Source: Alphaproteobacteria bacterium (GTDB taxonomy: Bacteria; Pseudomonadota; Alphaproteobacteria; Rs-D84). Taken from it: a stretch of 64,000 bases of DNA. This document shows positions 1,000 through 46,809 of this stretch, one piece after another. The notes beneath the pieces were generated by a model, which was not told where the DNA came from, ran no database searches, and saw only the letters and a program-made list of their open reading frames with translations. The position numbers and the translations under genes were made by a program. Position 1 is the stretch's first letter, and each line of letters begins with the position of its first letter. Location of the stretch: assembly GCA_017522445.1 (NCBI GenBank), contig JAFWZK010000014.1:21783-85782 (forward strand). The letters are read 5' to 3'.

Positions 1000-2286
1000 T
1001 TATTTTGAACCGATAACCTTTGCCCACGATTTTGCGGTTTCCTGGGTTTTTTTCCACAGTGTTTTTATATCAGACTTTAATGTATCGCCCATTTTTGTAT
1101 CTATTGCACCGCCCAGATCGGTTGCGAATTTCATTGCGTTTTTCGCCAGGTACATAGTTATCGCCACCACCAGTATTGTGACAAAGAATCCCGGGCTGTT
1201 GAAATCGGGCAGTTCGTCCACCGCACCAAAGTCTACAATTCCCCCCAACAGTGCCGCACAAATCGCAATGACAACACTTAATACGATAAAGTGCAACGCC
1301 GCATTAATAAAGCGTGATATCTGCGATTGCAGCGATTCTGCCTTAAATATTCCCATAAATCCATTAAATATATCGCCTGCGATTCCCTTGTACGATGTTT
1401 TTCCGATTGTTTCGGCCAACGCGGTAAATGGCAGCATAATAATCCCCAGGAACAAATCTGCGATTACACCAAACGCAATAAATGCGAATCGCCAGCTTAG
1501 CATTATAAAGCATATTATCAACGTCACCCCACATGCGAAACCAAATACGCTGTTTCCGATTGACAGTCCAATCCATTTCCACCCCAGTGCCACAGCCGTA
1601 TAGCAAAACCCGGCCAACCGTGTAGGCACGCACATGATATCTGCGGCATGCTCTGGGGATAACAGGTTTTCTGGCAAAGTATGATTGGCGGCATATTCGC
1701 GAATTGCCCCACATGTATCGGGCAGGTTAATTCCCGCTGTTTGTGTAATTGCATTCAATATTGCATCGCTAATTGCTGTCCCAATCAGCAGTATTGGTGA
1801 CATGACCATCATAAATGTCTTGGCGGGGCCAATCATCAGCACACCGGTCCACAGTGCGACCATTACGCCTTTTTTTACGATTTCTTTTATTTTATCTTCA
1901 GGTTTACTTTTTCCGATAATAATTGTATATGCCTCGAACCCAATCCAGAATGCATACGCAATAATGATAAACAGAATCACAAACCGCACCAGCGAAGTAT
2001 CCAACACATGTGCAACAAACGAAAAAGCATTCATGAACGCCAGTCCGATTTTTGCCTCGACTGGGACAAAGTCAGGAACGATTTGCTGTTGTTGTGTAAA
2101 ATATTTAACATCTGTGGTCATTTTTTCAACAAATCGTTCATGGTTATTTTCTGTTGCCCATGTTCCGAATTCGCCCACGTCCGCCATTGGCAAATTAGAT
2201 TCCGTTGCGAATGCCGGCACAACCAGGCATAATGCAAAAACCGCAACCAGAATTCGTGATAAAAATTTCTTTAAATCTTTCATCAT
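1000..2286 (-). CDS. VirB6/TrbL-like polytopic inner-membrane protein, paralogue 1 of 5
   Basis: 428 aa with an N-terminal signal/TM segment, many TM helices and a Lys/Trp-rich C-terminal tail. It is paralogous to the four adjacent membrane ORFs and sits in a window that also encodes VirB8/9/10. Confidence 0.5.
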   Translation of the reverse strand: MMKDLKKFLSRILVAVFALCLVVPAFATESNLPMADVGEFGTWATENNHERFVEKMTTDVKYFTQQQQIVPDFVPVEAKIGLAFMNAFSFVAHVLDTSLVRFVILFIIIAYAFWIGFEAYTIIIGKSKPEDKIKEIVKKGVMVALWTGVLMIGPAKTFMMVMSPILLIGTAISDAILNAITQTAGINLPDTCGAIREYAANHTLPENLLSPEHAADIMCVPTRLAGFCYTAVALGWKWIGLSIGNSVFGFACGVTLIICFIMLSWRFAFIAFGVIADLFLGIIMLPFTALAETIGKTSYKGIAGDIFNGFMGIFKAESLQSQISRFINAALHFIVLSVVIAICAALLGGIVDFGAVDELPDFNSPGFFVTILVVAITMYLAKNAMKFATDLGGAIDTKMGDTLKSDIKTLWKKTQETAKSWAKVIGSK

Positions 2287-3770
2287 TTCTTTTCCATAGC
2301 CCCGGTAATTTTTTCAGTGATTTGCACAGGCACATGCCAGATTTTTTGTCCCAAGTCATGCACCCATGCACCAAAGTCAAATTGTTCACCGGTTCCGACA
2401 TTTGCACTTTCACCTGGGATTGGTAATTTTATTGTACCCGCCGGCAACAGTTTGTCTATTTTCGGGCTGATTGCGTAATAGTACAGCAAGAACAGACATA
2501 CCATCATCAGCATAAAATCCCATCCATCTTTCATAAAGTCAAATGCACCTGGGTATTGTCTTTCGACCTCGGCCTTGCGTGCGATAAAGCATTGTTTGAA
2601 TATGTCTTTGTTGATTTGTCCATCTGCCAATGCGACCTGTTCGCAGGTTGCGAAAACATTCATAACGGACAGTGTTTGTGCATCTGGGTTTTGCACGGTT
2701 TGTCCCATCAACGGTGGCAAGATTGCACTGTATCCATCATTTGGCCCTGGCATAAATGTATCTGCGGTATATGATACAGTTGCATATATGATAATGACTT
2801 TCAGTGTAATTGCGATGATTCTGACTGCGGACGATATCAGCATACCGATTGCCTTGCTGACCAGTCCGTTGGCCTTGGCCCAGACATTTTCGAATGCAGT
2901 TGCCGCCAGCAGCAGTGGCAAGAATATAATCAAGAAAACCAACTTGAACACAACGGACAGAATTTGAAAGAATAAATCGAAACCGATAATCATGAACATT
3001 ATGACCAGTGCCAAACCTGCAATCCATGTTAACGCACCGCCACCCATGTCCATCCAGGCATAATTCATCATTGCAAATCCGCCTGCCGCCCCGGCCAGCA
3101 TTACACTGTTGATATTACCCATCACGCACATAAATGGTTTCATGATTGGGTTCAATATATCTTCTGCATCGGTTTCGCCAATTGCCCCCAGTGCATCACA
3201 TTGTGCAGCGTCCCCAACGCCTGTGGCCATCATGGACAGTTCTGCCCCTGTGTACAGTACGGGCGTAATAGTTATCTGTGAAACGGTTTTCAGTGCGGTT
3301 GTTCCTCCCATACCCAATGCCCCCATCAGGATTCCGACAACAAAAATTCTGGTTGCGGGTTTCCACAGTTTTTCCAGCCACGGTTTAAATTCTATTTTAT
3401 GTTCCTTGGGGTCCAGTGTTGCGGTTTTTTTTGCGTGTTCAAAGAAGTATTGGATGGTGTGAATCAGGATAAATACACCAAATCCAATAATCATCAGCAC
3501 CCACAGATTATTGACCATCAGTCCCCAGAACTTTTCAGTTGCCCCACCAATTACCCCGAACAGGTCTGCGACATATCGGCACAGAAAGCAACCATTTGCG
3601 GATGCGATATCGCCGTTTTCCACGCCGACTGCGGTCAGGAAGTTATTCATACTGGTATATGTTATCGACCCGCCACCAATAGATGCAGAAATATACCAAA
3701 TCCCGATACCCAGCGCGACCAGTACCATAATAATTCGCACGGCGATTAAAATCAGTTTTGCTTTCACCAT
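2283..3770 (-). CDS. VirB6/TrbL-like membrane protein, paralogue 2
   Basis: 495 aa polytopic protein that overlaps its neighbour by 4 nt. It has an N-terminal C-x-x-C-x-x-[VF]-D motif shared with paralogues 3 and 5, and a K-rich C-terminal tail. Confidence 0.5.
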   Translation of the reverse strand: MVKAKLILIAVRIIMVLVALGIGIWYISASIGGGSITYTSMNNFLTAVGVENGDIASANGCFLCRYVADLFGVIGGATEKFWGLMVNNLWVLMIIGFGVFILIHTIQYFFEHAKKTATLDPKEHKIEFKPWLEKLWKPATRIFVVGILMGALGMGGTTALKTVSQITITPVLYTGAELSMMATGVGDAAQCDALGAIGETDAEDILNPIMKPFMCVMGNINSVMLAGAAGGFAMMNYAWMDMGGGALTWIAGLALVIMFMIIGFDLFFQILSVVFKLVFLIIFLPLLLAATAFENVWAKANGLVSKAIGMLISSAVRIIAITLKVIIIYATVSYTADTFMPGPNDGYSAILPPLMGQTVQNPDAQTLSVMNVFATCEQVALADGQINKDIFKQCFIARKAEVERQYPGAFDFMKDGWDFMLMMVCLFLLYYYAISPKIDKLLPAGTIKLPIPGESANVGTGEQFDFGAWVHDLGQKIWHVPVQITEKITGAMEKK

Positions 3771-4960
3771 TATTTACCGTCCTTTTTATCGCCACCCGAG
3801 ATAATAGTTTTTCCAACTTTGACTGTTGCATCAAATGCGTCCTTGGCCAGGGTCAATACATCATTTGCCAATTGTTCACCCATATCCTTTTTCTCGGCAA
3901 CGTCAAACGCCGCCAGGAACATTTTAGAAACCTGTGGTATTTGTTCCTGAATAAAGTTCAAAACATATACCAGCACAATTGCACTTATCAGTGTCATTGC
4001 CTGCAGGTTTTCTGTATTTAAATCGGCTTCGAACACCTGTCCTGTGGTTATGGCGGTCATCAAATCTGCGGCCGATGCATCTGGTGCAGAAAAGAACTTG
4101 GCGATAATTACCATAATAATGGTATACGTCAGCACAACCGACCCCAGTGTTACGATTGCATTAATCAGATTTTTAATTTGGTTAACACCGACCCCAGACC
4201 CCAGTTTACCAATCCATGCGGGCACATGTTCAGCCCCTTTGAATGCAAACGCGACCAGCGATATTGGAAAGAAAAACGCAAAGAACGCCATCGCCACAAT
4301 TGCATCCAGAAAATAACAACAGTATCTGAAAAATAACTTAAAAAATCCCCATGCCAGATACAGCCCAATCATAAACAAAATAATATGCTTAATCAGTATT
4401 CCGACCCCCAGTAATGCCCGCCATGTAAATGCCTTGTCCATCATTGCGATACCCAGTTTAATATATGACTGGAATTGAGTAATTGTTGTTTTCATCAGCA
4501 ATATGATTTTGTCACGCAGTTCTGGTCTGTAAAATCCATCATCGCTCATTTCTTGTGGTTGATATGTAACCTTTTCTTCGACTGCATCTGTATCCATTTT
4601 TGTAATGGCCTGGGTATATGTCAGTGTAATTTGTGCGACTGGTTCGAAAATAATTGTTGTAACAGTGCGTGGCAGCATAACCCCCATGCCCATCAGTGCA
4701 ATTGCGACAATTCCATTAACAAAGACCCGTTGTATAGATTTTTCATACAGAGTATCTGCAAAGTTATTTTGAAAATTTTTCCAAATTGCATTTACCATAA
4801 ACACAGCGAACAGAAACACAAACAGAATCACACATATTTGGCTGAAATATCCATATATATTTGCCGCCGCCATGGACACGATTTGAAACAGTCTGTCGAA
4901 CACCCCACAGCCCCAACACTGCACAGCATTTTCCACCAAAGATGATGTCCACTGGTTCAT
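3770..4960 (-). CDS. VirB6/TrbL-like membrane protein, paralogue 3
   Basis: 396 aa polytopic protein with the CWGCGVFD motif, arranged in tandem with its neighbours. Confidence 0.5.
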   Translation of the reverse strand: MNQWTSSLVENAVQCWGCGVFDRLFQIVSMAAANIYGYFSQICVILFVFLFAVFMVNAIWKNFQNNFADTLYEKSIQRVFVNGIVAIALMGMGVMLPRTVTTIIFEPVAQITLTYTQAITKMDTDAVEEKVTYQPQEMSDDGFYRPELRDKIILLMKTTITQFQSYIKLGIAMMDKAFTWRALLGVGILIKHIILFMIGLYLAWGFFKLFFRYCCYFLDAIVAMAFFAFFFPISLVAFAFKGAEHVPAWIGKLGSGVGVNQIKNLINAIVTLGSVVLTYTIIMVIIAKFFSAPDASAADLMTAITTGQVFEADLNTENLQAMTLISAIVLVYVLNFIQEQIPQVSKMFLAAFDVAEKKDMGEQLANDVLTLAKDAFDATVKVGKTIISGGDKKDGK

Positions 4961-6237
4961 TTCTTAATCCATCCTGCGGCGGTTCCAATTGCTTTGCCTG
5001 TTTTTTTTATGTCACCCCAGAGTGTACCTGCATCGGCCTTGACACTTTTATACAGTCCGTCCATACCGCCGCCAATATATTTATTCAGCTGTTGCTGAGT
5101 TTTATCGAATATTTTGAACATTAAATAGAACGTCAGTATTGCGGACATCCATGTTACCGAGTGTTGTCCAAATCCTGTTGTCTGGTTTGCGATGGTTGGG
5201 ATATTGCTGGCGGCACTGCCCCCTGCGGCGACAACAAACACAGACGAATTCCAGTTAAACAATGCACGTATCACGGCCAGATTTATACACAACATAAATG
5301 CACACGCAATCATTGTCACAATCAGCTGTTGCAGTGCCTTGGTAATACCGCTGAATGCGGGCCAGACATCGAACCATTTATCACTGGGTTTCACGACGTA
5401 TGTCAGTACATGAAACGGATACAGTATCAATTGCATGCCAAAGTTAAATATTCCCTGGATAATCAGCAGTGCCATAAACAAATTACTGGCCACAAATGTA
5501 AAGATTAACAGTATCCCCGTAATAATATTTAAAAAGTTTTCACCCCCATGCGGAATCAAGGTCATCAGTCCCTGTAAACCGCGTGTCAGTTGTGCGAAAC
5601 CATACTTTACAATTTGGTTATTTGCGTTTGATAAATCGGACACAGGTTGAATCAGGAAATCACATGATTCCTGTGAAATCCAGTTATGTTCCAGAATATC
5701 TGCGGGGCATTTTACCTGGGGAATATTTTGTGGATTTTGTATAATTTGTTCTGTGATAATTCCCGTATAAATCGCCCCCAGTTCCAGAAATGGATTTACC
5801 AGCCACTGTGTTAAAAATACGGGTTTCATCTGTAATAAAAATACAGCGGCTATAATTGCACGTGTTCCAGACTTTAAAGTTTTTTCTATGATTTGATATC
5901 CTGTAATTTCACCATCTGCAATTTCACCGCCCCCCGATATTCCCAGAACAGACAACCATTTTTTTGGGAAATACATTTTAACGACTGTAATTGTAATCGT
6001 GATACCCAGGAATATCCAAACAAACGCATAGATAAATCCGTCACCATTTCCGACAAAGAAATCATACATACTTGTAGCGACCAGCATCATCGCATCCAGT
6101 ACCAGCGGCACAAACGGTGCCAGGTTTAACGAATCTATGATATTACCTGCGTATGCGGCATCTGGCATGACAAACATCACGCCCAAAAACAATCCGAAAA
6201 TTATTTTTTTCAGCAGGTACATTCTCTGTATTTTCAT
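4957..6237 (-). CDS. VirB6/TrbL-like membrane protein, paralogue 4
   Basis: 426 aa with a signal peptide, polytopic topology and a ...LWGDIKKTGKAIG... tail like the other paralogues. Confidence 0.5.
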   Translation of the reverse strand: MKIQRMYLLKKIIFGLFLGVMFVMPDAAYAGNIIDSLNLAPFVPLVLDAMMLVATSMYDFFVGNGDGFIYAFVWIFLGITITITVVKMYFPKKWLSVLGISGGGEIADGEITGYQIIEKTLKSGTRAIIAAVFLLQMKPVFLTQWLVNPFLELGAIYTGIITEQIIQNPQNIPQVKCPADILEHNWISQESCDFLIQPVSDLSNANNQIVKYGFAQLTRGLQGLMTLIPHGGENFLNIITGILLIFTFVASNLFMALLIIQGIFNFGMQLILYPFHVLTYVVKPSDKWFDVWPAFSGITKALQQLIVTMIACAFMLCINLAVIRALFNWNSSVFVVAAGGSAASNIPTIANQTTGFGQHSVTWMSAILTFYLMFKIFDKTQQQLNKYIGGGMDGLYKSVKADAGTLWGDIKKTGKAIGTAAGWIKK

Positions 6238-6291
6238 TTTATGTTTTCAATTATATCACATTTTGTGCAAAATATGATATACTTAAAAACA

Positions 6292-7581
6292 ATGAACAGG
6301 TTAAAAAAGTTTTGGACAGTATTTTTATCATTCTTGCCCTGGGCGGCGGGTGCGGGTGTTCCGTTGCTGATTGGTGGTGTTGCCGGGGTTGGTATGTTGG
6401 CAGGGTTTTCGATATATCGCACATCGGTTCCTGTATCGCCAACAGACGCGTACCAGTTTTTTTCCAGTTGTTGGACCTGTCAAATGTTTTCGGACATTAT
6501 GGCAACGATGTCTGGTATTTTGCCACGAATATATCATGCGCTGGGTCAAACGATTGTTCCATTTACGATTATGCTGACCGCCATATGGTGGACGTGGAAA
6601 ATTGTCAGCGGTCTGCTTAATGGCAAAGTTGATGCCCCCTGGACATTGGCCAGTACATTTGTAAATCACATCAGTCGTCTGGCGATTGTCTGTATATTTT
6701 TACTGGCACCATTGCCGCGTTTAATTTCAGACGTTGCGATTACGCCGATTTTTAACATAGGTTTGTCATTGAATCGTGCGGTTGTTCATGATGATGGTTT
6801 TGATACATGTGTTATTTCCACTGCTTTGACTGATTCGACGGTGGTTGATTCTGCTGTGGCGGATTCCGGTGCGTTTTCGCCCACGCTGCGTCATAATTTG
6901 GCGTGTGAATTATCTGGTGTGCATCAAATGACGGGCATGGGCATGACGGTTGGCTGGACCATGTTGAACATGGCGTTTGATGCAGACTATATGCACAAGA
7001 TATTATGGGGTGTTCCGATTTTTCCGAACGTTATATTGTTTTTTGCAGGTTTATTGGTTTTGATTTTGTTTTTTTCAGCATTATTGCCAATACCCATATA
7101 TTTTTTAGAGATATTTATAACATTGGCATTGGATATGGTGATGTTACCGTTTATGTTATTGGCCTGGCTGTTCAAGGGTTGGCAAATATCCTTGGCTGGT
7201 GCGGGCAAAACGATTCGCGGCATTGTGGACGATGTGATAAATGGCACATTGGGTTTGGCGATGACCGGGATATTTGTATCATTTGCGATAATGTTTCTGG
7301 ACGCGGTGTTTGGTGATTGGAATGGTGTATCTGCGTTATCTGTTGCATTAACCCAAAACGATTCGAAATTTTTGATGGATGCCTTGATGATGCGTAATGA
7401 CGGGCTGATAACGGTAATATTTATGGGTATCTTTTTAACGATGTTCATGATAATGATACCCGCCCTGGCCAAGAGTTTATTCGACGTTCAGATTTCAACA
7501 GACTTCTATGACACCACGAAAAAGAACCTGGATATTCTGTGGCAAGACCTGAAAAAGTGGTACTCAGCAATAAAAAAATAA
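6292..7581 (+). CDS. VirB6/TrbL-like membrane protein, paralogue 5, transcribed divergently from paralogue 4
   Basis: The ORF track starts at 6241; the internal start MNRLKKFW at 6292 is more plausible. It has the CWTCQMFSD motif, a polytopic topology and a ...LWQDLKKWYSAIKK tail. Confidence 0.45.
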   Translation: MNRLKKFWTVFLSFLPWAAGAGVPLLIGGVAGVGMLAGFSIYRTSVPVSPTDAYQFFSSCWTCQMFSDIMATMSGILPRIYHALGQTIVPFTIMLTAIWWTWKIVSGLLNGKVDAPWTLASTFVNHISRLAIVCIFLLAPLPRLISDVAITPIFNIGLSLNRAVVHDDGFDTCVISTALTDSTVVDSAVADSGAFSPTLRHNLACELSGVHQMTGMGMTVGWTMLNMAFDADYMHKILWGVPIFPNVILFFAGLLVLILFFSALLPIPIYFLEIFITLALDMVMLPFMLLAWLFKGWQISLAGAGKTIRGIVDDVINGTLGLAMTGIFVSFAIMFLDAVFGDWNGVSALSVALTQNDSKFLMDALMMRNDGLITVIFMGIFLTMFMIMIPALAKSLFDVQISTDFYDTTKKNLDILWQDLKKWYSAIKK

Positions 7582-9232: not shown

Positions 9233-9306
9233 GGTCTGTTTTCCGTATTTTCCACTTGCGTGCGATTCGTGATTTGTTCTATGATTACATCAGGAAGGAA
9301 AGGAAA

Positions 9307-10659
9307 ATGCGTCATTTATCATTAAGTATATTGGCTGTAATGCTGATGGTTCCTGGGGTTTCGAATGCACGTATGCCTGTGGTGAACATTTCATCCGGCA
9401 GTATTTCTGCACGTTCTGCATTTGGTGATTTTGATACATTGTCCCAGAAACGCGATATTGCGACATCTGCGGCAAAGAAAACGGCACCGACCCGCACACG
9501 TTCGGTTGTTGCCCGTTCTGCGGTTAATCGGGCGCCATCTGCATCCACTGATATGGGCGAATCGTTGACGGTTGCGTCTGATGTATTGATTCCACATCGC
9601 CCCAGCGGTGATTTGTGGGCGAAAAGTGATAATACTTTGCGTATGCCAATGCCCAGCGAGTTTTCTGTTATACGTTCTGATGGTTTATTACCCGAAGAAA
9701 GTCTGGATGACACATTTTCGGCGGTCAGCCCCAGGGTTACACCTGTATCAAAGCCGGTTCGTGTTGCATCGACTGTGCCATCGACCACTGCGGTACCACG
9801 GACGGTATCTGACCTGGATGCACAGATTGCACGTATGGCAGACATGCAAAAACGCACTGCGACCGGTGAACGCAATGTGTCATCGCGTATAATTACATCG
9901 CCCATCGCGGTATCTGAAAATATGCCGGTTGTTGCCGCTGCATCGGTTAATCCACCTGCCGTGGAACGCACTGCAAAAAACCAAGAATCGACTGTTGCAA
10001 ACAATGATTTTTCATTACGTCGCATGGTTGTTCCAATGTCTGACGAAGTTGTTGTTCGCAGTGTGGCCAAGAACACATCGCCACGCATTGCGGCGGTACG
10101 CGATGACATGACCAAGATGAGTCCTGCCGAACTTCGTCGTGCATTTCGCAAAACCTTTTTATCCGAGAACAAGCATCTGTCCACATATCCGAACATGGAT
10201 AATTATGACGTGGCCAGTGATATGTCCTCTGCTATCGAGGGGTTTACCGCCAGTCGTGATTTATCAGAATCGGGTGGTATTCGTCCATTGGAAATCAAGA
10301 TAAAGTTCCGTAATGAAGATTCTGCATTATCGCGTGAAAATTATAATTTGTTGACCGAATATGCAGGCATAGTGGTCAGCAAACCCACACGTGCGGTTCA
10401 AATTGCAATACCCCAGTACATGACCACCGACAAGGATGCACGTAAACTGGCGGCACGTCGTTTGGCGATTGTAGAGCAGGCATTAACAGATAACGGTGTA
10501 TCCCAACAGCGAATCATTCCTGTATTATCTAATCGGGAAGAGCAGGGATTTGTTTTGCGTATTATTTCTGGTGACCAGTATGACAGTCTGACCCAGCAAC
10601 AGCGTGATATATTTGGTGATACTGTCAATAAAAAGACGTACAAAAGCATGTCATGGTAG
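9307..10659 (+). CDS. Secreted Ser/Thr/Ala/Val-rich protein with an OmpA-like C-terminal domain
   Basis: Start MRHLSLSIL preceded by an AGGAAAGGA ribosome-binding site. It has a signal peptide and low-complexity segments. The C-terminal ~110 aa resemble an OmpA_C/MotB fold (...ARRLAIVEQALTDNGV...RI). Confidence 0.5.
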   Translation: MRHLSLSILAVMLMVPGVSNARMPVVNISSGSISARSAFGDFDTLSQKRDIATSAAKKTAPTRTRSVVARSAVNRAPSASTDMGESLTVASDVLIPHRPSGDLWAKSDNTLRMPMPSEFSVIRSDGLLPEESLDDTFSAVSPRVTPVSKPVRVASTVPSTTAVPRTVSDLDAQIARMADMQKRTATGERNVSSRIITSPIAVSENMPVVAAASVNPPAVERTAKNQESTVANNDFSLRRMVVPMSDEVVVRSVAKNTSPRIAAVRDDMTKMSPAELRRAFRKTFLSENKHLSTYPNMDNYDVASDMSSAIEGFTASRDLSESGGIRPLEIKIKFRNEDSALSRENYNLLTEYAGIVVSKPTRAVQIAIPQYMTTDKDARKLAARRLAIVEQALTDNGVSQQRIIPVLSNREEQGFVLRIISGDQYDSLTQQQRDIFGDTVNKKTYKSMSW

Positions 10660-11375
10660 GTTTTGTAAACAAAGTCATTGAATTTTTATTTCCACCGGCG
10701 TGTCCATTATGTGATACGCCGGTATCTACACATGGTCAGTTATGTGGCACATGTTGGGCGGCGATAAACTGGATAGATAATCCAAAGTGTATTCGTTGTG
10801 GTTATCCATTTCCTGCGGATTTAGATTTGGGGTCTGCACCCATGTGTCCGGTATGTGCGGCGGGCAAATGTGAACTAGATTGGATACGGTCGGCCTGTGT
10901 ATATGATGATGCATCGCGTATGGCGATGTTACCGTTCAAGCATGGTGGACGTATTCGTTATGCACGTTTTATGTCGCATGCGATGATTTGGGCATTACGC
11001 GATATTGATATTGATGCAGACATTGTTATGCCTGTTCCATTGGCAAATCGGCGATTATTTCATCGTGGTTATAATCAGGCGGCATTATTGGCGCGTCCAA
11101 TTGCACATGCGTTAAATATTCCGATGGATGTTGATTCTGTTCAACGCAAGTATCGTCCAGACATGGGACACAAAAACTCTCGCGAGCGTGCCGCCAACAT
11201 CCACGGTGTATTCAGCGTGGCAAAGCCGGACAATATTCGTGGTCGCAGGATTTTATTGGTTGATGATGTTATGACAACGGGTGCGACATTTTATGAATTA
11301 CGTCGTACATTGTTGGCGTCTGGTGCGGTGTCGGTATATGGTGTGTCGTTTTGTCGTGTGGTTCGTGCAATCTAG
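10653..11375 (+). CDS. ComF-family phosphoribosyltransferase-domain protein
   Basis: N-terminal Cys-rich zinc finger (CPLC...CGTC...CIRCGYP...CPVC) and a C-terminal PRTase motif (ILLVDDVMTTGAT). Confidence 0.8.
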   Translation: MVGFVNKVIEFLFPPACPLCDTPVSTHGQLCGTCWAAINWIDNPKCIRCGYPFPADLDLGSAPMCPVCAAGKCELDWIRSACVYDDASRMAMLPFKHGGRIRYARFMSHAMIWALRDIDIDADIVMPVPLANRRLFHRGYNQAALLARPIAHALNIPMDVDSVQRKYRPDMGHKNSRERAANIHGVFSVAKPDNIRGRRILLVDDVMTTGATFYELRRTLLASGAVSVYGVSFCRVVRAI

Positions 11376-33197: not shown

Positions 33198-34403
33198 ATG
33201 AGAAGAATGTTCGCCTTTTTTATCGCATGCATGTTGTGCAGTACCGCCTATGGTGCCCAGTATCGTGCCGCCCTGGTTGCAGACATGGACACAGGTCGTG
33301 TCCTGTACCAGGAAAATGCCACCCAGTTAAATTACCCGGCCAGTTTGACCAAGATTATGACACTGTATTTAACGTTTGATGCATTGGAACATGGTCGTCT
33401 GGCATTGGACGATTATCTGATTGTATCTGCATCGGCTGCAAATGCAGAACCTGTAAAATTGGGACTGGTGGCGGGGTCAAAAATCCGTGTCGAAGACGCG
33501 ATTAAGGCATTGGCGGTCTACAGTGCAAATGACGTTGCACGTGTTTTGGCGGAAAATCTAAAAGGCGGCCAGGAAGAATCCTTTGCAGATTTAATGACCC
33601 GTGTTGCCCGGCAGATTGGTCTGACCAATACCAACTTTGCAAATTCATCTGGTCTGCCAAATGACGACCACCTGTCTACGGCCCGTGACATTGCATTGTT
33701 GTCCATGGCGGTATATAAACATTTTCCCCAGTATTGGCACTTTTTCGGGATTAAATCCTGGACATATAATGGCAAGACCTATACCAACGGCAACCGTCTG
33801 CTGACATCGTTTAACGGCTGTGATGGGATGAAGACCGGGTATACAAAAAAATCCAAGTATTCATTGGTTGCAACTGCACATCGTGGTAATACGCATTTGA
33901 TGTCTGTTGTTTTGGGTGCTGAAAACAAAGATGTTCGTGCAAACGTTGCCGCCCAGATGTTAAACCGTGGTTTTACAATGTTGGGTGATGGCAGTGCCCC
34001 TGTGATTCGAACAACCCCGGTTCCACCAATTGACAGCACCCATGGCCAGCCGATTTTATCGGACAATGTTGTTGATGCGGCTTATGTATCTGATACGGCA
34101 CCTGTTTCATCATTTTCGTCTGCATACAACGCGGCGACATCGAATGCGATGCCAAAATACACTGGTGCCGCTGTGTCGGGCGGTTCAGGTGGGGCAGGTG
34201 TCCAGTTCGGTGCATTTTCATCAGAATCTGCGGCCCGCACCCAGGTTGCAAATGTCAAAAATAAATTGGGTGTAAATGCAGTTGTTGAACCGACCGGGAC
34301 AGGGCTGTACCGTGTACGTGTATATGGTCTGTCAGAATCTGCGGCGGGGCAACTAAAATCATCTGCCACGGCAAACGGTATTGACAGTTATGTTTTTCAC
34401 TAG
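33198..34403 (+). CDS. D-alanyl-D-alanine carboxypeptidase (S11, PBP5/6-like) with a C-terminal SPOR domain
   Basis: Signal peptide, the SxxK active site (ASLTKIM), S11 motifs, and a C-terminal GVQFGAFSSESAARTQ...GLYRVRVYG segment that reads as a SPOR fold. Confidence 0.8.
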   Translation: MRRMFAFFIACMLCSTAYGAQYRAALVADMDTGRVLYQENATQLNYPASLTKIMTLYLTFDALEHGRLALDDYLIVSASAANAEPVKLGLVAGSKIRVEDAIKALAVYSANDVARVLAENLKGGQEESFADLMTRVARQIGLTNTNFANSSGLPNDDHLSTARDIALLSMAVYKHFPQYWHFFGIKSWTYNGKTYTNGNRLLTSFNGCDGMKTGYTKKSKYSLVATAHRGNTHLMSVVLGAENKDVRANVAAQMLNRGFTMLGDGSAPVIRTTPVPPIDSTHGQPILSDNVVDAAYVSDTAPVSSFSSAYNAATSNAMPKYTGAAVSGGSGGAGVQFGAFSSESAARTQVANVKNKLGVNAVVEPTGTGLYRVRVYGLSESAAGQLKSSATANGIDSYVFH

Positions 34404-39785: not shown

Positions 39786-39816
39786 AAGTTCCGCCCACAT
39801 TGGGCGGATTTTTTTA
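39786..39816. terminator. Bidirectional intrinsic terminator (ccgcccacattgggcgg)
   Basis: Hairpin flanked by A- and T-runs, lying between the convergent yidC and Stealth genes. Confidence 0.7.
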
Positions 39817-40803
39817 TATTTCGAATTGTGATTTATCTGGAAACTTTTTATTTAAAAATTCCCAGTTTTTTTGTCTGACCTTATCGGATGTATTTGCACT
39901 GTCGTTTATGCAGAACAGTGGTGGGTTTACGTGCTGCATTGCCCGTTCCGCATTTTCGCAATACAGTGGTGCGTTTTTGCATTCGTGATGATGTGTAATA
40001 TTATACAGAAAATGTCGTGCACGTTTAAAATGTCTGGCCCGTTTCAGTATTGCACGTCCGTGCACAAAGTCATACAGATTAAAAATCCATCGTTGCAGTT
40101 CCCAGTTTGTTCTGAATTTATTTCTGATTTGCATATCAAAGTGTTGCACCAGCAAAGGGTGATTTCTGCATTGTATCATCGAAGATTTGATATATGGGTC
40201 GATATTATGTGCAGGTGCCATTTGCAGTAATTTTTTTCCAAATATTTTATGCAATTTGTGTGCCGCCATCAGAATAGTTTTTCTGTAATCAGATTCAACC
40301 ATTTCCATTGCGTATCCGACATTGCTGATTTTTTTATTTTGTGTATACCATACAATTGCTCGTCCTTGTTTGTCATAAAAGAAATCTGGTGTCAGTGGTT
40401 TGTTAAAGAACATATCATCATTTGCCAACAAGAAATGTTCACTCAGGTTTGGTATATTCATGATACACATTTCAATTGCAACCGAATTGAACGTAGGCAG
40501 ACTGTCTGCCGGCATAATTTGTTCATGTGAAACAATTGTGATTTTTGGATTGTTTGTGTTCAGCCATTTTGGTATCTGGCCAAATCCTGTCACGATAAAG
40601 ATATGGTTTATCCAAGGTGCGTATTTTTCTGCACTTCGCAGGGCGAATTTTAATTCATCATTATCCCTCCATCGGGCATCCACGGTTGAGTCATGACAGA
40701 CGGCGACCTGTTTTTTTATTTTTTGCAGCCAGAAATTTTTTTCTGTTATCCAGTTTTTATCACTGCCATCAACCCACATATACACTAAATCAATTTTTTT
40801 CAT
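39814..40803 (-). CDS. Stealth-family hexose-1-phosphoryltransferase (CR1-CR3 motifs present)
   Basis: Trimmed to the internal start MKKIDLVYMWVDGSD, which is Stealth CR1. It also carries DNDELKFALRSAEKYAPWINHIFIVT (CR2) and FNSVAIEMCIMNIPNLSEHFLLANDDMFF (CR3). An AAAGGA ribosome-binding site precedes the start. The track's 5' extension would overlap leader C. Confidence 0.85.
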   Translation of the reverse strand: MKKIDLVYMWVDGSDKNWITEKNFWLQKIKKQVAVCHDSTVDARWRDNDELKFALRSAEKYAPWINHIFIVTGFGQIPKWLNTNNPKITIVSHEQIMPADSLPTFNSVAIEMCIMNIPNLSEHFLLANDDMFFNKPLTPDFFYDKQGRAIVWYTQNKKISNVGYAMEMVESDYRKTILMAAHKLHKIFGKKLLQMAPAHNIDPYIKSSMIQCRNHPLLVQHFDMQIRNKFRTNWELQRWIFNLYDFVHGRAILKRARHFKRARHFLYNITHHHECKNAPLYCENAERAMQHVNPPLFCINDSANTSDKVRQKNWEFLNKKFPDKSQFEI

Positions 40804-40828
40804 TTTTATGTCCTTTGATTTTGCCAAC

Positions 40829-40931
40829 AAAAAACCGTCAAAAATTGACGGCCGGGCATTTTCAAGGTCATAAATCCAAATGACTCTGTGGCTTTCGGGA
40901 ATCCCTGTTGTATAACCACAGATACCCGACC
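40829..40931 (-). promoter_or_regulatory. Conserved structured 5' leader, copy C
   Basis: On the minus strand the outer helix is GGUCGGG(40931-25) paired with CCCGGCC(40856-50), including one U-G wobble. The inner helix cugugg/ccacag encloses UAUACAACAGGG, a gggauuccc hairpin and AAAG. The terminator ccgucaa-uuu-uugacgg followed by U6 lies at 40851-40829, and the start codon is at 40803. Confidence 0.55.
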
Positions 40932-41057
40932 TCACATGGGGGTCAGGTTACATATCGACACGCATTGCGTGCCGTGGATTTATGGGTCTTGAAAACCCAG
41001 ACCTTTGATTATCAGGTCGATGGCATTATGCCCCAGAAAAATAAAATTTTCAACTGA

Positions 41058-41399
41058 TTAAATTGCCTTCAATTTTTTATACAGTTGCCACGGTGTTTGA
41101 ATCCATATATTTTTTAATCCGATTGCATGTTTGGCAAATTGTACACATGTCAGTGCCCTGGGGTGGGGCGGGATATCTTTGTATTTCCGGGGCAGTATTA
41201 AAAATTCCCAGCCAAATTTTTCCAGTATTTTAATATCCCGCAATTTTATTATTATTGGGACGATTTGGTTATATTTTACAAAATGCATCATGGTCGCTGT
41301 GTCTGCAGTTGGGACGATGATTGCCACGTGTTTAAAGTTTTTACACAGTAATTTCGGCAGTATCTTTGATGTTCTATTTGAAAATCCAATAATTATCAT
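41058..41399 (-). CDS. Hypothetical protein, possibly a permuted NlpC/P60 (LRAT-like) hydrolase
   Basis: 113 aa. A His-containing motif (KHVAIIV) precedes a Cys motif (TCVQFAKHA), the order seen in LRAT-like enzymes. The call is weak. Confidence 0.3.
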   Translation of the reverse strand: MIIIGFSNRTSKILPKLLCKNFKHVAIIVPTADTATMMHFVKYNQIVPIIIKLRDIKILEKFGWEFLILPRKYKDIPPHPRALTCVQFAKHAIGLKNIWIQTPWQLYKKLKAI

Positions 41400-41446: not shown

Positions 41447-41791
41447 TTATTCAATCCATCCGCGTTGTTTGGCTGCTGCCTCCAGTACGTTCATTGCGGT
41501 GTTCCATTGTGCTGCTGCACGATTTTCTGCCCAGATATATTGATGTGGTGCCCGTTTTTTATCACCAAACTTTTTCATAATTTCCAATTGTGTATCGGTC
41601 AATTTTCCGGCCAAATATAATTTGGTAATCAGTGTTTCTACATCTAATATTTCACATGGTCTGCGTGTTGGGTTTCCGCCACGGTTTATCAGTCTGTTTG
41701 CACGCATTTGTCTTGAGTATAAAAACCAGAACCATAATTGTTCAGCACTTTGAAATTTTTCATTTGATACAATTGGGTTTGTGTTTGTCAT
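41447..41791 (-). CDS. Hypothetical protein
   Basis: 114-aa basic protein directly downstream of virB10, with no motif I can recognise. Confidence 0.35.
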   Translation of the reverse strand: MTNTNPIVSNEKFQSAEQLWFWFLYSRQMRANRLINRGGNPTRRPCEILDVETLITKLYLAGKLTDTQLEIMKKFGDKKRAPHQYIWAENRAAAQWNTAMNVLEAAAKQRGWIE

Positions 41792-42106: not shown

Positions 42107-44512
42107 CTATAATATTGGCGGGAAACAGTCACCACCACTTTCTGGGCAACAGTTAAACCCTTGTTCGCCCATATCGGTGTATATTTCGCCTGGACAGCAA
42201 CCATTTGCATCTGGTGGTGTGCCACCTTCGCACAGTATTTGTTCCTCGACTTCTTCGATTGCGGTCGTTGTGCCAGTGTCGTACGGGTTTTGTACGGCAC
42301 CATCTGTATTGTATTGTACCCCCAGTATTTCCTGGTTAAACTGTTGCGAGCCAACACCCCCCAGGTCTTCTATTTTTTGCTGATACTGTTGCTGTTGATC
42401 TTCGCGATAGATATCGTATTGCAACGCCTTTTTAGACTGATAATTCAAAGAATCACAATACATTTTCAGTGTACTATACGAATGCCCCCCGCATACATTA
42501 GTCTTGCCTGCACCCTGTCCGGTGCATTCGGATTTGACACGCCACAATCCTTGTTCGTCTTCTTCGCAGTATATACCTGTTGTGAACGAACGCGATTGCC
42601 CAACCCATGAATCATCTTGTGCGGCATACAGTTCCATGTCATCTGATGTGATTGTTCGTCTTTTATCGTTGCCAAATGGGGCGACTGCACACTTTTTATT
42701 TCCGTTTGGCCCATCTTTGGTGCCACAGGTAATTTGCAAATCCACGGGTGAATAGACGGTTATCCGTGTACCTGCTGCGATTGTAAATGGTGGGACGGTA
42801 TTGTCCATCATATCGACCATTAACTTTTGTGCGACCTGGTTCCATGCGGTTATAATTTCATTTTTCGCCAGTTCCGATGAACGCATTGTGCCGCTTTGCA
42901 CCACTGTATTGTTATCCAGGTCGATTTGATTCACAAACGCATCTGCAACCGGGTTAATCAGGTTGATTGCCGCCGGCACAAATGCGGTCAGCATAGGCAT
43001 AAAGAACTGTTCCAGATAGTCTGAACTGCCCCGTCCCGGTACACCAACGCGTCCCTGGGCATCTGCCGAATATGGGTCAGAGCCTGCTGGAAAATTAAAT
43101 TCCACACCATCTGGTCGAATAAACTGATACCATTTGATTTGCATACGTCCAATTGTCTTGTATGGTCCTGGGACTTCACCTGTAACATATCCCAACATCA
43201 GTGTTCCTGTTGGAATAACAATATTGCGTCCGTCATCAGAAAAAACATTTCTGTCGACTGTTGCACGAACCGGTACACCCAACTGCAGGGCAGGGATGTC
43301 TGCACGAATATCAGACACGATTGTTGCCGGGATTGGCTTATACTGACGTAAAACAAAACTGCGGTCGTACGGTGCGGTTGAAGTCACAGTATTTTGACCT
43401 GTGGTCCCAAATATAACACCCGTTTCGGGGGCAGTTTTTATAACACTGCCAAAACCACCATCTTCGGCCCCCAGTCGCATTGCGCCGTAACTGTCTGGTA
43501 ATTCATCCAGTTCCAATTGTTGTGCCCGATTTACCACTGCGATTGCAGGTGCATTGGATAATTCTGGCAACACGCCACCGCTGATTGCGGCGAACCCGAT
43601 ATGGTCTGCATCTGTTCCGATTTTTTTACCATTGTTATCGGTAATTATACCGTTATCTGGATTGTATGTTCCCGCGGGTTTGCTGCAGTTTGTATCGGCA
43701 AACGTATGGAAAAAGTACGCCCCGCCACTGGGTTTTATCCATCCGCTTTGCCGTCCCTGATTGTCAAAGGCCGCAAACGCAAAGTCCGAACAACCATCTG
43801 GTATTGTAAATGTACGTTCTGTCACGTTTTTTGTTATCACTGGTTCGACTATGACATCTGGTGCAATAGATTCTATTTCCCGTTTTATTTCTTCTTTGAC
43901 AGGGGTGTATGCGATTGGTTCGAACTCGGGCTCTGGCTGTTCTTGGATAACAGGTTCAACAATTTTAACGGTCTGGGGTTCTGCGGGTTTTTGTTCAATC
44001 TGTGGTGCGACCGCCCCCAGTGTAATGACGATTTTTGCAGTTTTTTTCATTGCATCCGTTTCGTCGGCGTCGTGCCAGTCGACAAATACCGGCAAATTTT
44101 TTGTTGTCATAACGGCTGTTGGTGCATAGTCCAAATACACACCACATGCCAGAGTGCTGTCTATTTTTTTAATTTGTTTACACGTGTCCCGCAATGTCAG
44201 CCCCGGCGTATTTTCATGCAGTCTGACATCAACAACATTGACAGGTGCGGTTGCAGAAATTTTAACTGTTTCTGATTTTTTTTGTCCAACCAGAGTATCT
44301 GCCCAGTTTATCATATCTGGTGAAATGACCAAATCGGTCGGTATGGCATCTGTTGCATCATCATCATTGTTGTTATTATCGCCCCCAATCAACAACACCA
44401 GCAAAATCAGCACCACGGTAAATGCGGCCGCCAACAACAACCACTGTACCCGTCTGGGGGTATTTTTACGCAAATCAAGAAATTGCTGTTTTATTTTACT
44501 CATGCTCTCCAC
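42107..44512 (-). CDS. virB10: Type IV secretion protein VirB10/TrbI with a long N-terminal region and a Cys-rich C-terminal extension
   Basis: N-terminal cytoplasmic segment and TM helix (WLLLAAAFTVVLILLVLLIGG), a Pro/Glu-rich linker, and a TrbI/VirB10 core (...VPVRATVDRNVFSDDGRNIVIPTGTLMLGY...GRVGVPG...). It is 801 aa. The last ~200 aa contain about a dozen Cys. Confidence 0.8.
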   Translation of the reverse strand: MESMSKIKQQFLDLRKNTPRRVQWLLLAAAFTVVLILLVLLIGGDNNNNDDDATDAIPTDLVISPDMINWADTLVGQKKSETVKISATAPVNVVDVRLHENTPGLTLRDTCKQIKKIDSTLACGVYLDYAPTAVMTTKNLPVFVDWHDADETDAMKKTAKIVITLGAVAPQIEQKPAEPQTVKIVEPVIQEQPEPEFEPIAYTPVKEEIKREIESIAPDVIVEPVITKNVTERTFTIPDGCSDFAFAAFDNQGRQSGWIKPSGGAYFFHTFADTNCSKPAGTYNPDNGIITDNNGKKIGTDADHIGFAAISGGVLPELSNAPAIAVVNRAQQLELDELPDSYGAMRLGAEDGGFGSVIKTAPETGVIFGTTGQNTVTSTAPYDRSFVLRQYKPIPATIVSDIRADIPALQLGVPVRATVDRNVFSDDGRNIVIPTGTLMLGYVTGEVPGPYKTIGRMQIKWYQFIRPDGVEFNFPAGSDPYSADAQGRVGVPGRGSSDYLEQFFMPMLTAFVPAAINLINPVADAFVNQIDLDNNTVVQSGTMRSSELAKNEIITAWNQVAQKLMVDMMDNTVPPFTIAAGTRITVYSPVDLQITCGTKDGPNGNKKCAVAPFGNDKRRTITSDDMELYAAQDDSWVGQSRSFTTGIYCEEDEQGLWRVKSECTGQGAGKTNVCGGHSYSTLKMYCDSLNYQSKKALQYDIYREDQQQQYQQKIEDLGGVGSQQFNQEILGVQYNTDGAVQNPYDTGTTTAIEEVEEQILCEGGTPPDANGCCPGEIYTDMGEQGFNCCPESGGDCFPPIL

Positions 44513-44536: not shown

Positions 44537-46060
44537 TTATTGCATCCGAACAACACTGCAGCTGGTTCCGCTGAATCTCAGCAATTTATCACACAGTGTT
44601 TGTGCCGTGTCAATATCTGCGAATGGTCCGATTCTTAACCGGTATTGCCGTGCCGTCGACGATGTAGCCCCCAGTTCGCCAACCCCCTGTTCATCTACTG
44701 CAAAGAACACCATATCTTTATATGGGGTTAATAATCCTTGTCCGTCATCGCCGCTGAATTTGGCCATCAGTGTATTCCAGTATTCGTCCAGTGCGGCCAC
44801 AGATGTATCAGATTTCAGTTCCAACGCAACCCCAACCTGGTTACTGGCGATTAATGGTATGTTTGACTGTGGCAGATATGCCCCGGCTGTGTTTCGTTGC
44901 TGTGGCAGCATATTTACCACACTGCCCGACGACTGTGGCATGACCTGTGGAACTGTGAACCCGGCTGGCACATAGTATCCGGCCCCGGTTGTTGGATTAA
45001 CTGTCTGTGTATTTCCAACAAACATTGGTGTTCCGGTATAGTTTGTACCCATGCTCATTGCGGCCATGCTGTCCGTATATGCGATGTTGTTCAGTGATTG
45101 TCCCGACAGCATGCTTTGTGCAACATTTGCCTCGGCCAGTGCCATTACCGATGCGGTATCTGCGATTAAGAATGGTTTTTCACGTTTTTTGATACATACA
45201 ATTCTTTGTCCGCTGCGTAATACCATATCACCCACCGCCTCGACAATCAGCAGTCGTCCATCTTCGCCATCTGTGCGGAATCCAACGGGCGATTCACCAC
45301 CTTCGACCAACAGTGACACGACCGGTCGCTGTGTCATAGAAATAACCTTGTCGCCAAAGTCGATATATGTAAATATTCTGTCCCGCCATACGCGTTCTGG
45401 GGCGATGACATAGTCATCTGGGTTTGGTACAAAGATGTCCAAATCGAATCTGAATTCAGACGGGTCGATTTTCATTGACTTTATCCATCCATAGTCTTCG
45501 CCATCGGCACCAACGACACTGGTTGCAGGTGCGGCTTTTTTAAATATAGAACTGGCCCCACCTGATGTTGTGGTGTTTCCCATCACGGGCAGTGTGCCAT
45601 TTCCGTCCAGCATAATATCCACCTGCGAGTATGTGATTTCGCTGGAATTAGATGGTTCACTGCGTAAATAGAAAATGTATTTGTTCCCAGATTTTCCCGT
45701 CACAATCATATTGGTATCTGACCCCTGGTTATCACCTGCCGGGGAAATAAACATTGTACGTTCTCCCTGGGTTGCGTCTATGGTAAACAATCCCTGATTT
45801 CCAATGACCGCATCGGCAATTTGTTCACCGTTGGGCAGTGTAATCATGGTTACCATACCGTTTCTCAGTTTGACTGGCAGAACGGCCCCCGCCGACCATG
45901 TCAGCTGGGCATAACCTGGTTTTGTACTGCCGGCGGCCATATTAGCGGTTGGATTATCCCATGCATTTTGCACCCCATACACCTCGGCATAGGCGGGCAG
46001 ACTTAAAATCCCGACCAAACAGAACACGGATATATTTAACTTTGATAATTTTGCCAGCAT
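44537..46060 (-). CDS. virB9: Type IV secretion protein VirB9/TrbG with a C-terminal SPOR-like extension
   Basis: Signal peptide and VirB9 N- and C-domains (...RDRIFTYIDFGDKV...). It is 507 aa. An extra ~220 aa end in QYRLRIGPFADIDTAQTLCDKLLRFSGTSCSVVRM, which reads as a SPOR fold. Confidence 0.75.
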   Translation of the reverse strand: MLAKLSKLNISVFCLVGILSLPAYAEVYGVQNAWDNPTANMAAGSTKPGYAQLTWSAGAVLPVKLRNGMVTMITLPNGEQIADAVIGNQGLFTIDATQGERTMFISPAGDNQGSDTNMIVTGKSGNKYIFYLRSEPSNSSEITYSQVDIMLDGNGTLPVMGNTTTSGGASSIFKKAAPATSVVGADGEDYGWIKSMKIDPSEFRFDLDIFVPNPDDYVIAPERVWRDRIFTYIDFGDKVISMTQRPVVSLLVEGGESPVGFRTDGEDGRLLIVEAVGDMVLRSGQRIVCIKKREKPFLIADTASVMALAEANVAQSMLSGQSLNNIAYTDSMAAMSMGTNYTGTPMFVGNTQTVNPTTGAGYYVPAGFTVPQVMPQSSGSVVNMLPQQRNTAGAYLPQSNIPLIASNQVGVALELKSDTSVAALDEYWNTLMAKFSGDDGQGLLTPYKDMVFFAVDEQGVGELGATSSTARQYRLRIGPFADIDTAQTLCDKLLRFSGTSCSVVRMQ

Positions 46061-46101: not shown

Positions 46102-46809
46102 TTATTCAGCCGCCAAAAATCCAGTATTTAACGGATCGCCATCGCCTTCGACGACTGTGTATTCCTGAACCCGCAGTCCCAATGGATTTTCAATTCTGTC
46201 GGTCCATTTTATTTGTGGGGACGGGTCAGTGGTTAACTTTATTTTGATTGTATAATCTTTTGGCCAGGTTCGTCCAGTATTATCTGCACAAAAGTATCTA
46301 AATTTTACCTGATACCTGTCTTCGCTGGCCAGATACAGTGGTGCACCTTCAAACACAACTGGACATGTAAAGTCAAAATCTGGCATTTCGCTCATCAGTG
46401 CGGTGAACATGGTCGTGTTTGCAAAGTCTGCATACACTTGGTCGGTTGACATGATGCGAACTTCGCCATTTTCGCTGTTCCATGTTTTGTGCATTGCTGT
46501 TGCGTTTGTAAAAACCTCGTTTCTCAGTCTGACGTATTCACGCACGAATGCACGTTTATACCGGTCCAGATTTGCATCACGTGGTTGCAGTTCGACCAGT
46601 TTTACATCTTGGTCGGCCCGCACAGTTGTTGTCAGAAAGAATATCTGGGGTTTATTCAGCGGGAACATTTTCGCCAGCGTTATGACTAAAACCCCCAACA
46701 CTACCAGTGCGGTTGCCATAACGAACGTCATCATTCTTGATATTAAAACTGGCGGTTCCAGGCGGTTTTTCACGCAATCTCTCCCTTTGATTAAAATGAT
46801 TGTAGACAA
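46102..46809 (-). CDS. virB8: Type IV secretion protein VirB8
   Basis: 235 aa with an N-terminal TM helix, a periplasmic NTF2-like domain and the conserved NPLG motif. Confidence 0.75.
   Translation of the reverse strand: MSTIILIKGRDCVKNRLEPPVLISRMMTFVMATALVVLGVLVITLAKMFPLNKPQIFFLTTTVRADQDVKLVELQPRDANLDRYKRAFVREYVRLRNEVFTNATAMHKTWNSENGEVRIMSTDQVYADFANTTMFTALMSEMPDFDFTCPVVFEGAPLYLASEDRYQVKFRYFCADNTGRTWPKDYTIKIKLTTDPSPQIKWTDRIENPLGLRVQEYTVVEGDGDPLNTGFLAAE

Follow-up and report, generated by a model that had tools for sequence, protein, structure and literature searches.

Analysis of a 64,000-nucleotide stretch of an Alphaproteobacteria bacterium genome of order Rs-D84 (GenBank assembly GCA_017522445.1, contig JAFWZK010000014.1, positions 21,783 to 85,782), hereafter called the window, showed that a virB10-like gene on its reverse strand (42107..44512) specifies a protein that continues well beyond the beta-barrel with which canonical VirB10 proteins end. 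Of all subunits of type IV secretion systems (T4SSs), VirB10 alone crosses both membranes, and the barrel at its C-terminus is regarded as invariant. Here the barrel is followed by 213 residues that include 12 cysteines. There is little room for doubt that this tail is a real and conserved extension, composite in structure and ending in a portable module. Enlarged VirB10 homologues are already known; what is new is an undescribed portable mini-domain carried on a C-terminal extension of VirB10. The reading we prefer, with a probability of about 0.4, is that the module serves for docking in the periplasm, where it would tether or decorate the outer-membrane core complex of the secretion system.

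A preliminary description of this DNA had put the extension at about 200 residues with roughly 12 cysteines, and the motifs that it quoted (CEED.., CCPGE.. and CCPESGGDC) are all present. Twelve of the 16 cysteines of the protein fall within aa 589-801 (positions 596, 608, 649, 663, 674, 686, 761, 772, 773, 788, 789 and 796; residues are numbered in the 801-residue reading frame), and the barrel contains none. Against the cysteine content of the 31 other open reading frames (ORFs) of the window (0.92%), the probability of finding 12 cysteines in 213 residues is 9e-7, and that of finding six in the last 41 residues is 2e-6. The full protein, used as a query, had 895 matches. Among the best 120, 117 were proteins of 776-837 aa, 52-99% identical to the query and covering 100% of it (99% for one), the other three being shorter fragments. 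To measure conservation and count cysteines, 183 distinct full-length homologues (~48-99% identity), from independent assemblies found in ENA, NCBI, JGI and Logan, were aligned. The tail is collinear in these proteins and the junction between barrel and tail (...RITVYSP-x-DL..C) is invariant among them. Ten of the twelve tail cysteines are invariant or nearly so, and the barrel is free of cysteines in 180 of the 183. A frameshift merging two genes, set beforehand as the refutation of the extension, fails in the face of this collinearity. That any frameshift or assembly error should have fused virB10 to the gene downstream is a negligible prospect: no point was found in favour of it, and the frame that runs through the invariant junction in the 183 homologues is also that of P0001, a 99% identical protein from an independent assembly. 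Apparent stand-alone ORFs for the tail proved to be contig-end fragments or chimeric calls; P0187 and P0208 look chimeric and were set aside.

The tail had been described as one domain. It is instead made up of a VirB10-specific part, a variable linker and a 41-aa portable module. The first part (aa 593-744; 42281..42736; this and all other parts of the gene are on the reverse strand) carries three cysteine pairs. A Cys596-Cys608 loop comes right after the last barrel strand and leads into an alpha/beta region (column identity 0.44-0.55) with Cys649/663/674/686, the motif SWVGQSRSF, a helix rich in Gln and a conserved NPY motif. In an AlphaFold2 (AF2) model of the tail alone, built with 74 sequences (mean predicted local distance difference test score, pLDDT, 76.8), residues 51-160 of the tail have pLDDT of 75-95, with helices at 91-100, 106-128 and 135-142 (tail numbering). 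In searches with the tail profile, this part matches solely VirB10-like proteins or fragments. The linker that follows (aa 745-760; 42233..42280) has a column identity of 0.36 and a pLDDT of ~51. The terminal six-cysteine module (aa 761-801; 42110..42232), CEGGTPPDANGCCPGEIYTDMGEQGFNCCPESGGDCFPPIL, is predicted to form a beta-hairpin (pLDDT 85-93). Its pattern in VirB10 occupies 41 aa, C-x10-CC-x14-CC-x6-C-FPP, and its six cysteines are invariant in 183/183 homologues; the column identity of the module, 0.87, is on a par with that of the barrel, 0.88.

That the extension falls outside canonical VirB10, as the preliminary description had it, is borne out by its position beyond every VirB10 model or solved structure matched. 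The check for known domains gave the same result throughout Pfam, NCBIfam, PHROGs, the PDB and Foldseek. In Pfam, the tail has no match at E<=0.01 and, with the limit set at E<=10, none below E = 0.33; in NCBIfam, PHROGs and PDB sequences, the single protein has no match beyond the barrel. The module taken separately has no match in NCBIfam and none in Pfam even at E<=10, and its profile finds nothing among PDB sequences at the same limit. Comparison of the tail model with the PDB by Foldseek gave no match either (best E 1.7). In the literature, we found no description of a cysteine-rich C-terminal extension of VirB10, of the six-cysteine module or of a T4SS in Rs-D84.

The module, as distinct from the part of the tail that precedes it, is found on other proteins. 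The tail profile first revealed complete proteins of ~215 aa with two copies of the module, and HMMER, run exhaustively over 1.84e9 representative proteins, then yielded 250 hits. When the carriers were clustered with the module masked, they separated into three unrelated families and 32 singletons. The VirB10 family accounts for 20 representatives. A secreted family (61 representatives, 136-325 aa) combines a signal peptide, a helical region with two cysteines and one to three modules. Members of a bitopic family (29 representatives, 635-852 aa) are composed of a cytoplasmic coiled coil, an acidic low-complexity region, a transmembrane (TM) helix, ~200 disordered periplasmic residues and the module. 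They have six cysteines in total, all in the module, and this module is near-identical to that of VirB10. The layout of these bitopic carriers resembles that of polarity factors such as PodJ, a likeness by analogy only. The singletons are mostly proteins of 68-134 aa, consisting of a signal peptide and the module and nothing else. The consensus of the module reads CxDGxxPDxNGCCxGExYTDMGxxGFNCCPxxGGDCFPP[IL]x; the spacing C-x10-CC-x14-CC-x6-C is observed in 201 of 273 instances, and in 243 of the 273 the module lies 10 residues or less from the C-terminus.

No T4SS genes were found beside those non-VirB10 carriers whose surroundings were examined, and the contexts are of a housekeeping kind. 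P0229, a secreted two-module protein of 214 aa (L001 10001..10645), is encoded by the last gene of an operon conserved in related genomes, together with a MacB/FtsX-type permease, an ABC ATPase and three unknown proteins. The bitopic carrier P0272 (L086 10001..12220; also P0266 and P0279) is encoded beside gcrA and a prepilin peptidase gene. When every GTDB species was represented by a single genome, 292 genomes were found to encode a relative of the virB10-like protein; 80 loci (48-81% identical) were kept, and all counts of loci, synteny and neighbours given below refer to these. No further copies of the module are present elsewhere in the window or within 10 kb of virB10 in the 80 loci. The module is portable within the lineage. 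The most conserved part of the tail is thus not specific to VirB10, which makes a special function in the secretion channel less probable than a general one in the cell envelope.

The membership of the protein in the VirB10/TrbI family, already claimed in the preliminary description, is upheld by a Pfam match above cutoff and by the adjoining virB8 and virB9 genes. TrbI PF03743, the sole Pfam match, covers aa 388-588 (66.9 bits against a cutoff of 35, E = 2.8e-18, profile positions 2-182 of 188). The NCBIfam models for T4SS_VirB10 and ComB10 match aa 383-593, in both cases below cutoff: NF038091, the canonical VirB10 equivalog, scores 57.1 bits against 220, and NF038092, the ComB10 of DNA-uptake T4SSs, 51 bits against 300. 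Matches to PDB sequences, with CagY the best and with ComB10 (structure 2bhv, E = 1.3e-4) and X. citri VirB10 also among them, are confined to aa 382-586. Judged by these scores, which fall below the NCBIfam cutoffs, the product of ORF 42107..44512 belongs to the TrbI/VirB10 superfamily as a divergent member and is not a canonical VirB10 or ComB10 equivalog. The mechanically called ORF extends for 801 aa from a GTG at 44512. Homologues begin at an ATG at 44503 (MSK...), three codons inside the GTG, and the sequence GGAG is found four bases upstream of this ATG. P0001 is 798 aa long, and the product of the gene is probably 798 aa as well, with the ATG as its likely start.

The preliminary description had attributed to the protein a normal VirB10 architecture. 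A cytoplasmic N-terminus, a TM helix, a Pro/Glu-rich linker and a barrel are indeed in place, but two added domains are present besides. The N-terminus and single TM helix occupy aa 1-43 (44384..44512; column identity 0.71), with AF2 helices at 3-17 and 20-43. Because a basic RKNTPRR stretch precedes the 21-residue hydrophobic segment of the TM helix, the predicted topology is N-in, C-out, which would place the tail in the periplasm. The first added domain (aa ~59-168; 44009..44338; pLDDT ~87) appears as an Ig-like beta-sandwich of the PapD/ASH/MSP type; a Foldseek search of the PDB related it to MSP, ASH and PapD-like domains (E = 1e-5, TMt 0.59-0.67). Its two cysteines, Cys111 and Cys123, are kept in 182 and 183 of the 183 homologues, respectively. 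Next comes the Pro/Glu-rich linker (aa ~169-235; 43808..44008), variable in length, with a column identity of 0.42 and with 10 Pro and 12 Glu within aa 170-225. The second added domain (aa ~236-335; 43508..43807) is a conserved periplasmic domain with column identity of 0.77, invariant Cys241 and Cys276 and a pLDDT of ~78 over aa 241-300; it has no family match in Pfam. The TrbI/VirB10 barrel (aa ~380-592; 42737..43375; column identity 0.88) includes the most conserved stretch of the entire protein, aa 499-569 (column identity 0.93), sited where the two-helix antenna is expected. AF2 places helices at 499-530 and 543-569 in this putative antenna, at pLDDT <50; over its full length the protein is modelled poorly (pLDDT 52.6; <50 in the barrel). 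This VirB10 is a canonical core with lineage-specific additions on both sides of the barrel.

The number of cysteines in the tail is even in 183/183 homologues: 10 in 48 proteins, 12 in 129 and 14 in 6. Variation affects Cys663 and Cys674 as a pair, both being present in 119 homologues and both absent in 52, with 12 discordant cases. Because the count is always even, because one pair is mostly gained or lost together and because topology puts the tail in the periplasm, we infer that the tail cysteines form periplasmic disulfide pairs and are neither free thiols nor metal ligands. In the VirB10-specific part, the pairing is probably 596-608, 649-686 and 663-674. The density of cysteines and the conserved Asp, Glu and Gly residues next to them might instead be taken to indicate that the CC..CC..C cluster holds zinc or an iron-sulfur centre. 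We regard this as very improbable, given the strictly even count and the joint gain or loss of one pair, the periplasmic or exported location of all carriers, the lack of any His in the module and the lack of similarity to a known metal-binding family.

The genes directly upstream of virB10, on the same strand and in the same operon, belong to the VirB8 (PF04335) and CagX/VirB9 (PF03524) families, and this order is kept in 77-80 of the 80 loci. The virB8-like gene (46102..46809, reverse strand; Pfam VirB8, 3.1e-10) was found in 77/80. The virB9-like gene (44537..46060, reverse strand; Pfam CagX 1.7e-21, SPOR 5.4e-5) encodes a protein of 507 aa in which a ~130-aa low-complexity region is followed by a C-terminal SPOR domain, a domain that binds peptidoglycan. 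The SPOR domain is kept in 80/80 loci; no earlier example of a SPOR-fused VirB9 is known to us, no literature search having been aimed at this point. Directly downstream of virB10 lie two small genes, orf114 (114 aa; 41447..41791, reverse strand; 75/80 loci, same order) and orf113 (113 aa; 41058..41399, reverse strand; 72/80 loci, same order). Neither has a significant family match in Pfam, NCBIfam or PHROGs (a weak match to DUF6906 has E = 1e-3). They may be overlooked partners of the VirB8-10 system, their membership being uncertain. The gene order rplK-nusG-secE / virB8-virB9-virB10-orf114-orf113 / yidC-lspA-kefB is found in practically every one of the 80 loci, and the virB8-virB9-virB10 locus is chromosomal and vertically inherited.

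Comparison with the RvhB10 of Rickettsiales, which the preliminary description had proposed, did not hold, as both the gene order and the lineage differ. The rvh order is virB8-virB9-virB10-virB11-virD4; here no virB11 or virD4 follows virB10, and the organism belongs to Rs-D84. In the window and in 72-75 of the 80 loci, virB10 is followed by orf114 and orf113 and then by yidC. All full-length homologues bearing the tail belong to Candidatus Enterousia or order Rs-D84. The carriers are metagenome-assembled genomes labelled Ca. Enterousia or "Alphaproteobacteria bacterium", from the guts of ruminants, horses, chickens and humans. Genomes of the order measure ~0.75-1.0 Mb and lack the TCA cycle and respiratory chains (PMC12306168).

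In the mechanism that we favour, the tail would lie in the periplasm with its cysteines engaged in disulfides, and the terminal module would dock its carrier to a conserved envelope partner common to all carriers, either a component of the cell wall or one of the outer membrane. The occurrence of a near-identical module on unrelated carriers is most simply explained by one conserved partner; since the inner membrane holds some of the carriers in place, this partner should be accessible on the periplasmic side, and the candidates are therefore peptidoglycan, a protein of the outer membrane or the inner face of that membrane. The build of the carriers is tether-like, the module standing behind a variable linker of low model confidence in VirB10 and behind ~200 disordered residues after the TM helix in the bitopic family. 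In VirB10, each protomer could contribute at most one flexible tether, and these tethers would surround the outer-membrane core complex and fix or decorate it. The peptidoglycan-binding SPOR domain of the neighbouring VirB9 offers a parallel: both core subunits have gained C-terminal modules related to the envelope, a circumstance that fits anchoring.

Some observations weigh against docking as the function of the module. The mini-proteins made up of a signal peptide and a module could equally have a free-standing activity, as a ligand, plug, inhibitor or toxin-like peptide. Neither genes for VirB4, VirB11, VirD4 or other inner-membrane T4SS components nor Dsb disulfide-forming enzymes were seen in the 64-kb window, the only part of the genome covered.

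Other functions can be envisaged for the same tail. The preliminary description had suggested a surface-exposed domain, for which no support was obtained. Such a domain would reach the surface, for instance via the VirB10 antenna pore or beside it, and there recognise or adhere to a partner or target cell. Small modules with three disulfides are typical of stable extracellular domains, which counts in favour of the idea. So do the signal peptides of the many secreted carriers and a conservation of the module as strong as a fixed ligand might impose, along with the reduced genomes of Rs-D84 and the probable reliance of this lineage on partners (PMC12306168). We nevertheless think a surface location unlikely. 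In all solved core complexes, the C-terminal domain of VirB10 is kept under the outer membrane, which the antenna helices alone cross (PMC6536674). No membrane route is evident for a folded tail of 213 residues, and the same module ends inner-membrane proteins anchored by a TM helix, whose exposure at the cell surface is implausible. These anchored carriers, which cannot be exported, also tell against a view of the module as a C-terminal sorting or processing tag, ending in ...CFPP[IL]x and read by machinery specific to the lineage for export, outer-membrane attachment or covalent linkage to peptidoglycan. The terminal position of the module in 243/273 instances and the diversity of carriers that have nothing else in common would suit a tag. 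Among the module-terminal proteins counted, moreover, the last residue is Lys in 67 and Arg in 8; a terminal Lys, frequent in small carriers, is also found in the Braun lipoprotein Lpp. VirB10 itself, however, ends in hydrophobic residues (IL, II, MF, LL) and not in Lys, and multi-module proteins contain internal copies. Known sorting tags consist of a TM helix and a short motif, quite unlike a folded 41-residue domain with three disulfides. A tagging function therefore seems to us decidedly unlikely.

It is also conceivable that the modules bind each other, perhaps through intermolecular disulfides, so as to form an extra ring of VirB10 or to link VirB10 to other carriers in place of a VirB7-type stabiliser. 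In Agrobacterium, a VirB7-VirB9 disulfide stabilises the core; no gene for a VirB7-like lipoprotein was seen in the virB8-virB9-virB10 operon. Some secreted carriers have two or three modules in tandem, and the vicinal CC pairs would allow alternative pairing. Yet the six cysteines of each module and the even total are fully explained by three internal disulfides, and AF2 models the module as a compact monomeric hairpin (pLDDT ~90). Self-association on this basis is not a likely function. Docking to a common envelope partner can be taken further, to the proposal that the module is a new "address" domain of the envelope, wiring a T4SS core, a bitopic protein resembling polarity factors and a partner of an ABC operon to a single receptor in the cell's own envelope or in a partner or host cell. 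On this view, the tail of VirB10 would make the T4SS outer-membrane complex a tethered or contact-sensing device essential to a dependent lifestyle. We put this forward as a speculation and rate it as rather doubtful.

Other genes of the window deserve mention. Between the T4SS locus and yidC, a stretch of low GC content (0.37) contains a gene for a Stealth-family protein (39814..40935, reverse strand; CR1/CR2/CR4, a family of capsule-type hexose-1-phosphoryltransferases). It is present in only 6 of the 80 related loci and is probably a variable insertion. A second SPOR fusion of the window is found at the C-terminus of a D-Ala-D-Ala carboxypeptidase (Peptidase_S11; 33198..34403, forward strand). 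A ComF-type protein with a double zinc ribbon and a phosphoribosyltransferase domain, of a family associated with competence, is encoded at 10653..11375 (forward strand). The adjoining gene (9256..10659, forward strand) specifies an exported protein of 467 aa with a weak OmpA-like C-terminus (E = 0.003). These two genes could bear on the question of whether VirB8-10 acts in DNA uptake, as ComB does, or in secretion. Five polytopic membrane paralogues of 396-495 aa, 19-25% identical and with Lys-rich C-terminal tails, are encoded in tandem at 1000..7581 (four genes on the reverse strand and one on the forward strand). They are confined to the same lineage as the virB10 locus and have no match in Pfam, NCBIfam or the PDB. 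In its tandem arrangement the group resembles the VirB6 paralogues of rvh systems, but a VirB6-like identity was not supported: Pfam, NCBIfam, a PDB profile search and the annotations of homologues gave no VirB6/TrbL signal.

A C-terminal addition strongly constrained across an entire lineage, together with a SPOR-fused VirB9, points to an outer-membrane core complex that is built differently. The organisms concerned, Rs-D84 and Ca. Enterousia, are uncultured, abundant in animal guts and endowed with genomes of <1 Mb; that a T4SS core is kept in so small a genome suggests a central role in life with partners or a host. The terminal module is an undescribed mini-domain, represented by ~250 clusters in 1.84 billion representative proteins; it marks envelope proteins and offers a handle on their common partner.

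Among small disulfide-rich folds, granulin-like hairpin stacks, knottins, LDL-receptor class A domains and hevein share with the module a size of ~40 residues, six cysteines and a beta-hairpin core. Its C-CC-CC-C framework with 10/14/6 spacing fits none of them; the vicinal CC pairs recall granulin, which we take as a lead only. In general layout, the bitopic carriers and VirB10 itself resemble TonB, TolA and Caulobacter PodJ, in which a protein anchored in the inner membrane reaches through the periplasm by a long linker, Pro-rich or disordered, and docks to an outer-membrane or cell-wall partner by a small domain at its C-terminus; for the module, docking is a proposal. Comparison of VirB10 with TonB is of long standing, and neither TonB and TolA nor peptidoglycan-binding domains show similarity in sequence or fold to the module or any evidence of homology with it.

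With canonical VirB10/TrbI proteins of minimised T4SSs (A. tumefaciens VirB10, pKM101 TraF, X. citri VirB10), the Rs-D84 protein has in common the TrbI barrel, the cytoplasmic N-terminus, the single TM helix, the Pro-rich linker and a gene that comes after virB8-virB9; two long conserved helices are also predicted at the antenna position. It differs from them in being about twice as long, in having two additional domains ahead of the barrel and in continuing for 213 residues past it, where canonical VirB10 proteins end with the barrel. Reviews place the variability of VirB10 at the N-terminus and describe the C-terminal domain as conserved (PMC6536674, PMC9371333). Precedent for core subunits gaining C-terminal extensions comes from the X-T4SS of Xanthomonas, in which VirB7 (N0 domain), VirB8 (AQGP tail) and VirB2 are extended; in VirB7, the extra part forms a peripheral decoration of the core complex (PMC6536674). 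Those extensions concern other subunits and other folds; they include no cysteine-rich module and none is common to unrelated proteins. The repeat regions of H. pylori CagY and the pentapeptide repeats of L. pneumophila DotG are N-terminal to the barrel. Both proteins are, like the Rs-D84 protein, VirB10 homologues with lineage-specific enlargement in elaborated core complexes, and the large repeat region of CagY is missing from the minimised VirB10 (PMC9371333). In the VirB10 of Rs-D84, by contrast, the largest addition is C-terminal and disulfide-rich, and the module at its end is shared with proteins unrelated to T4SSs.

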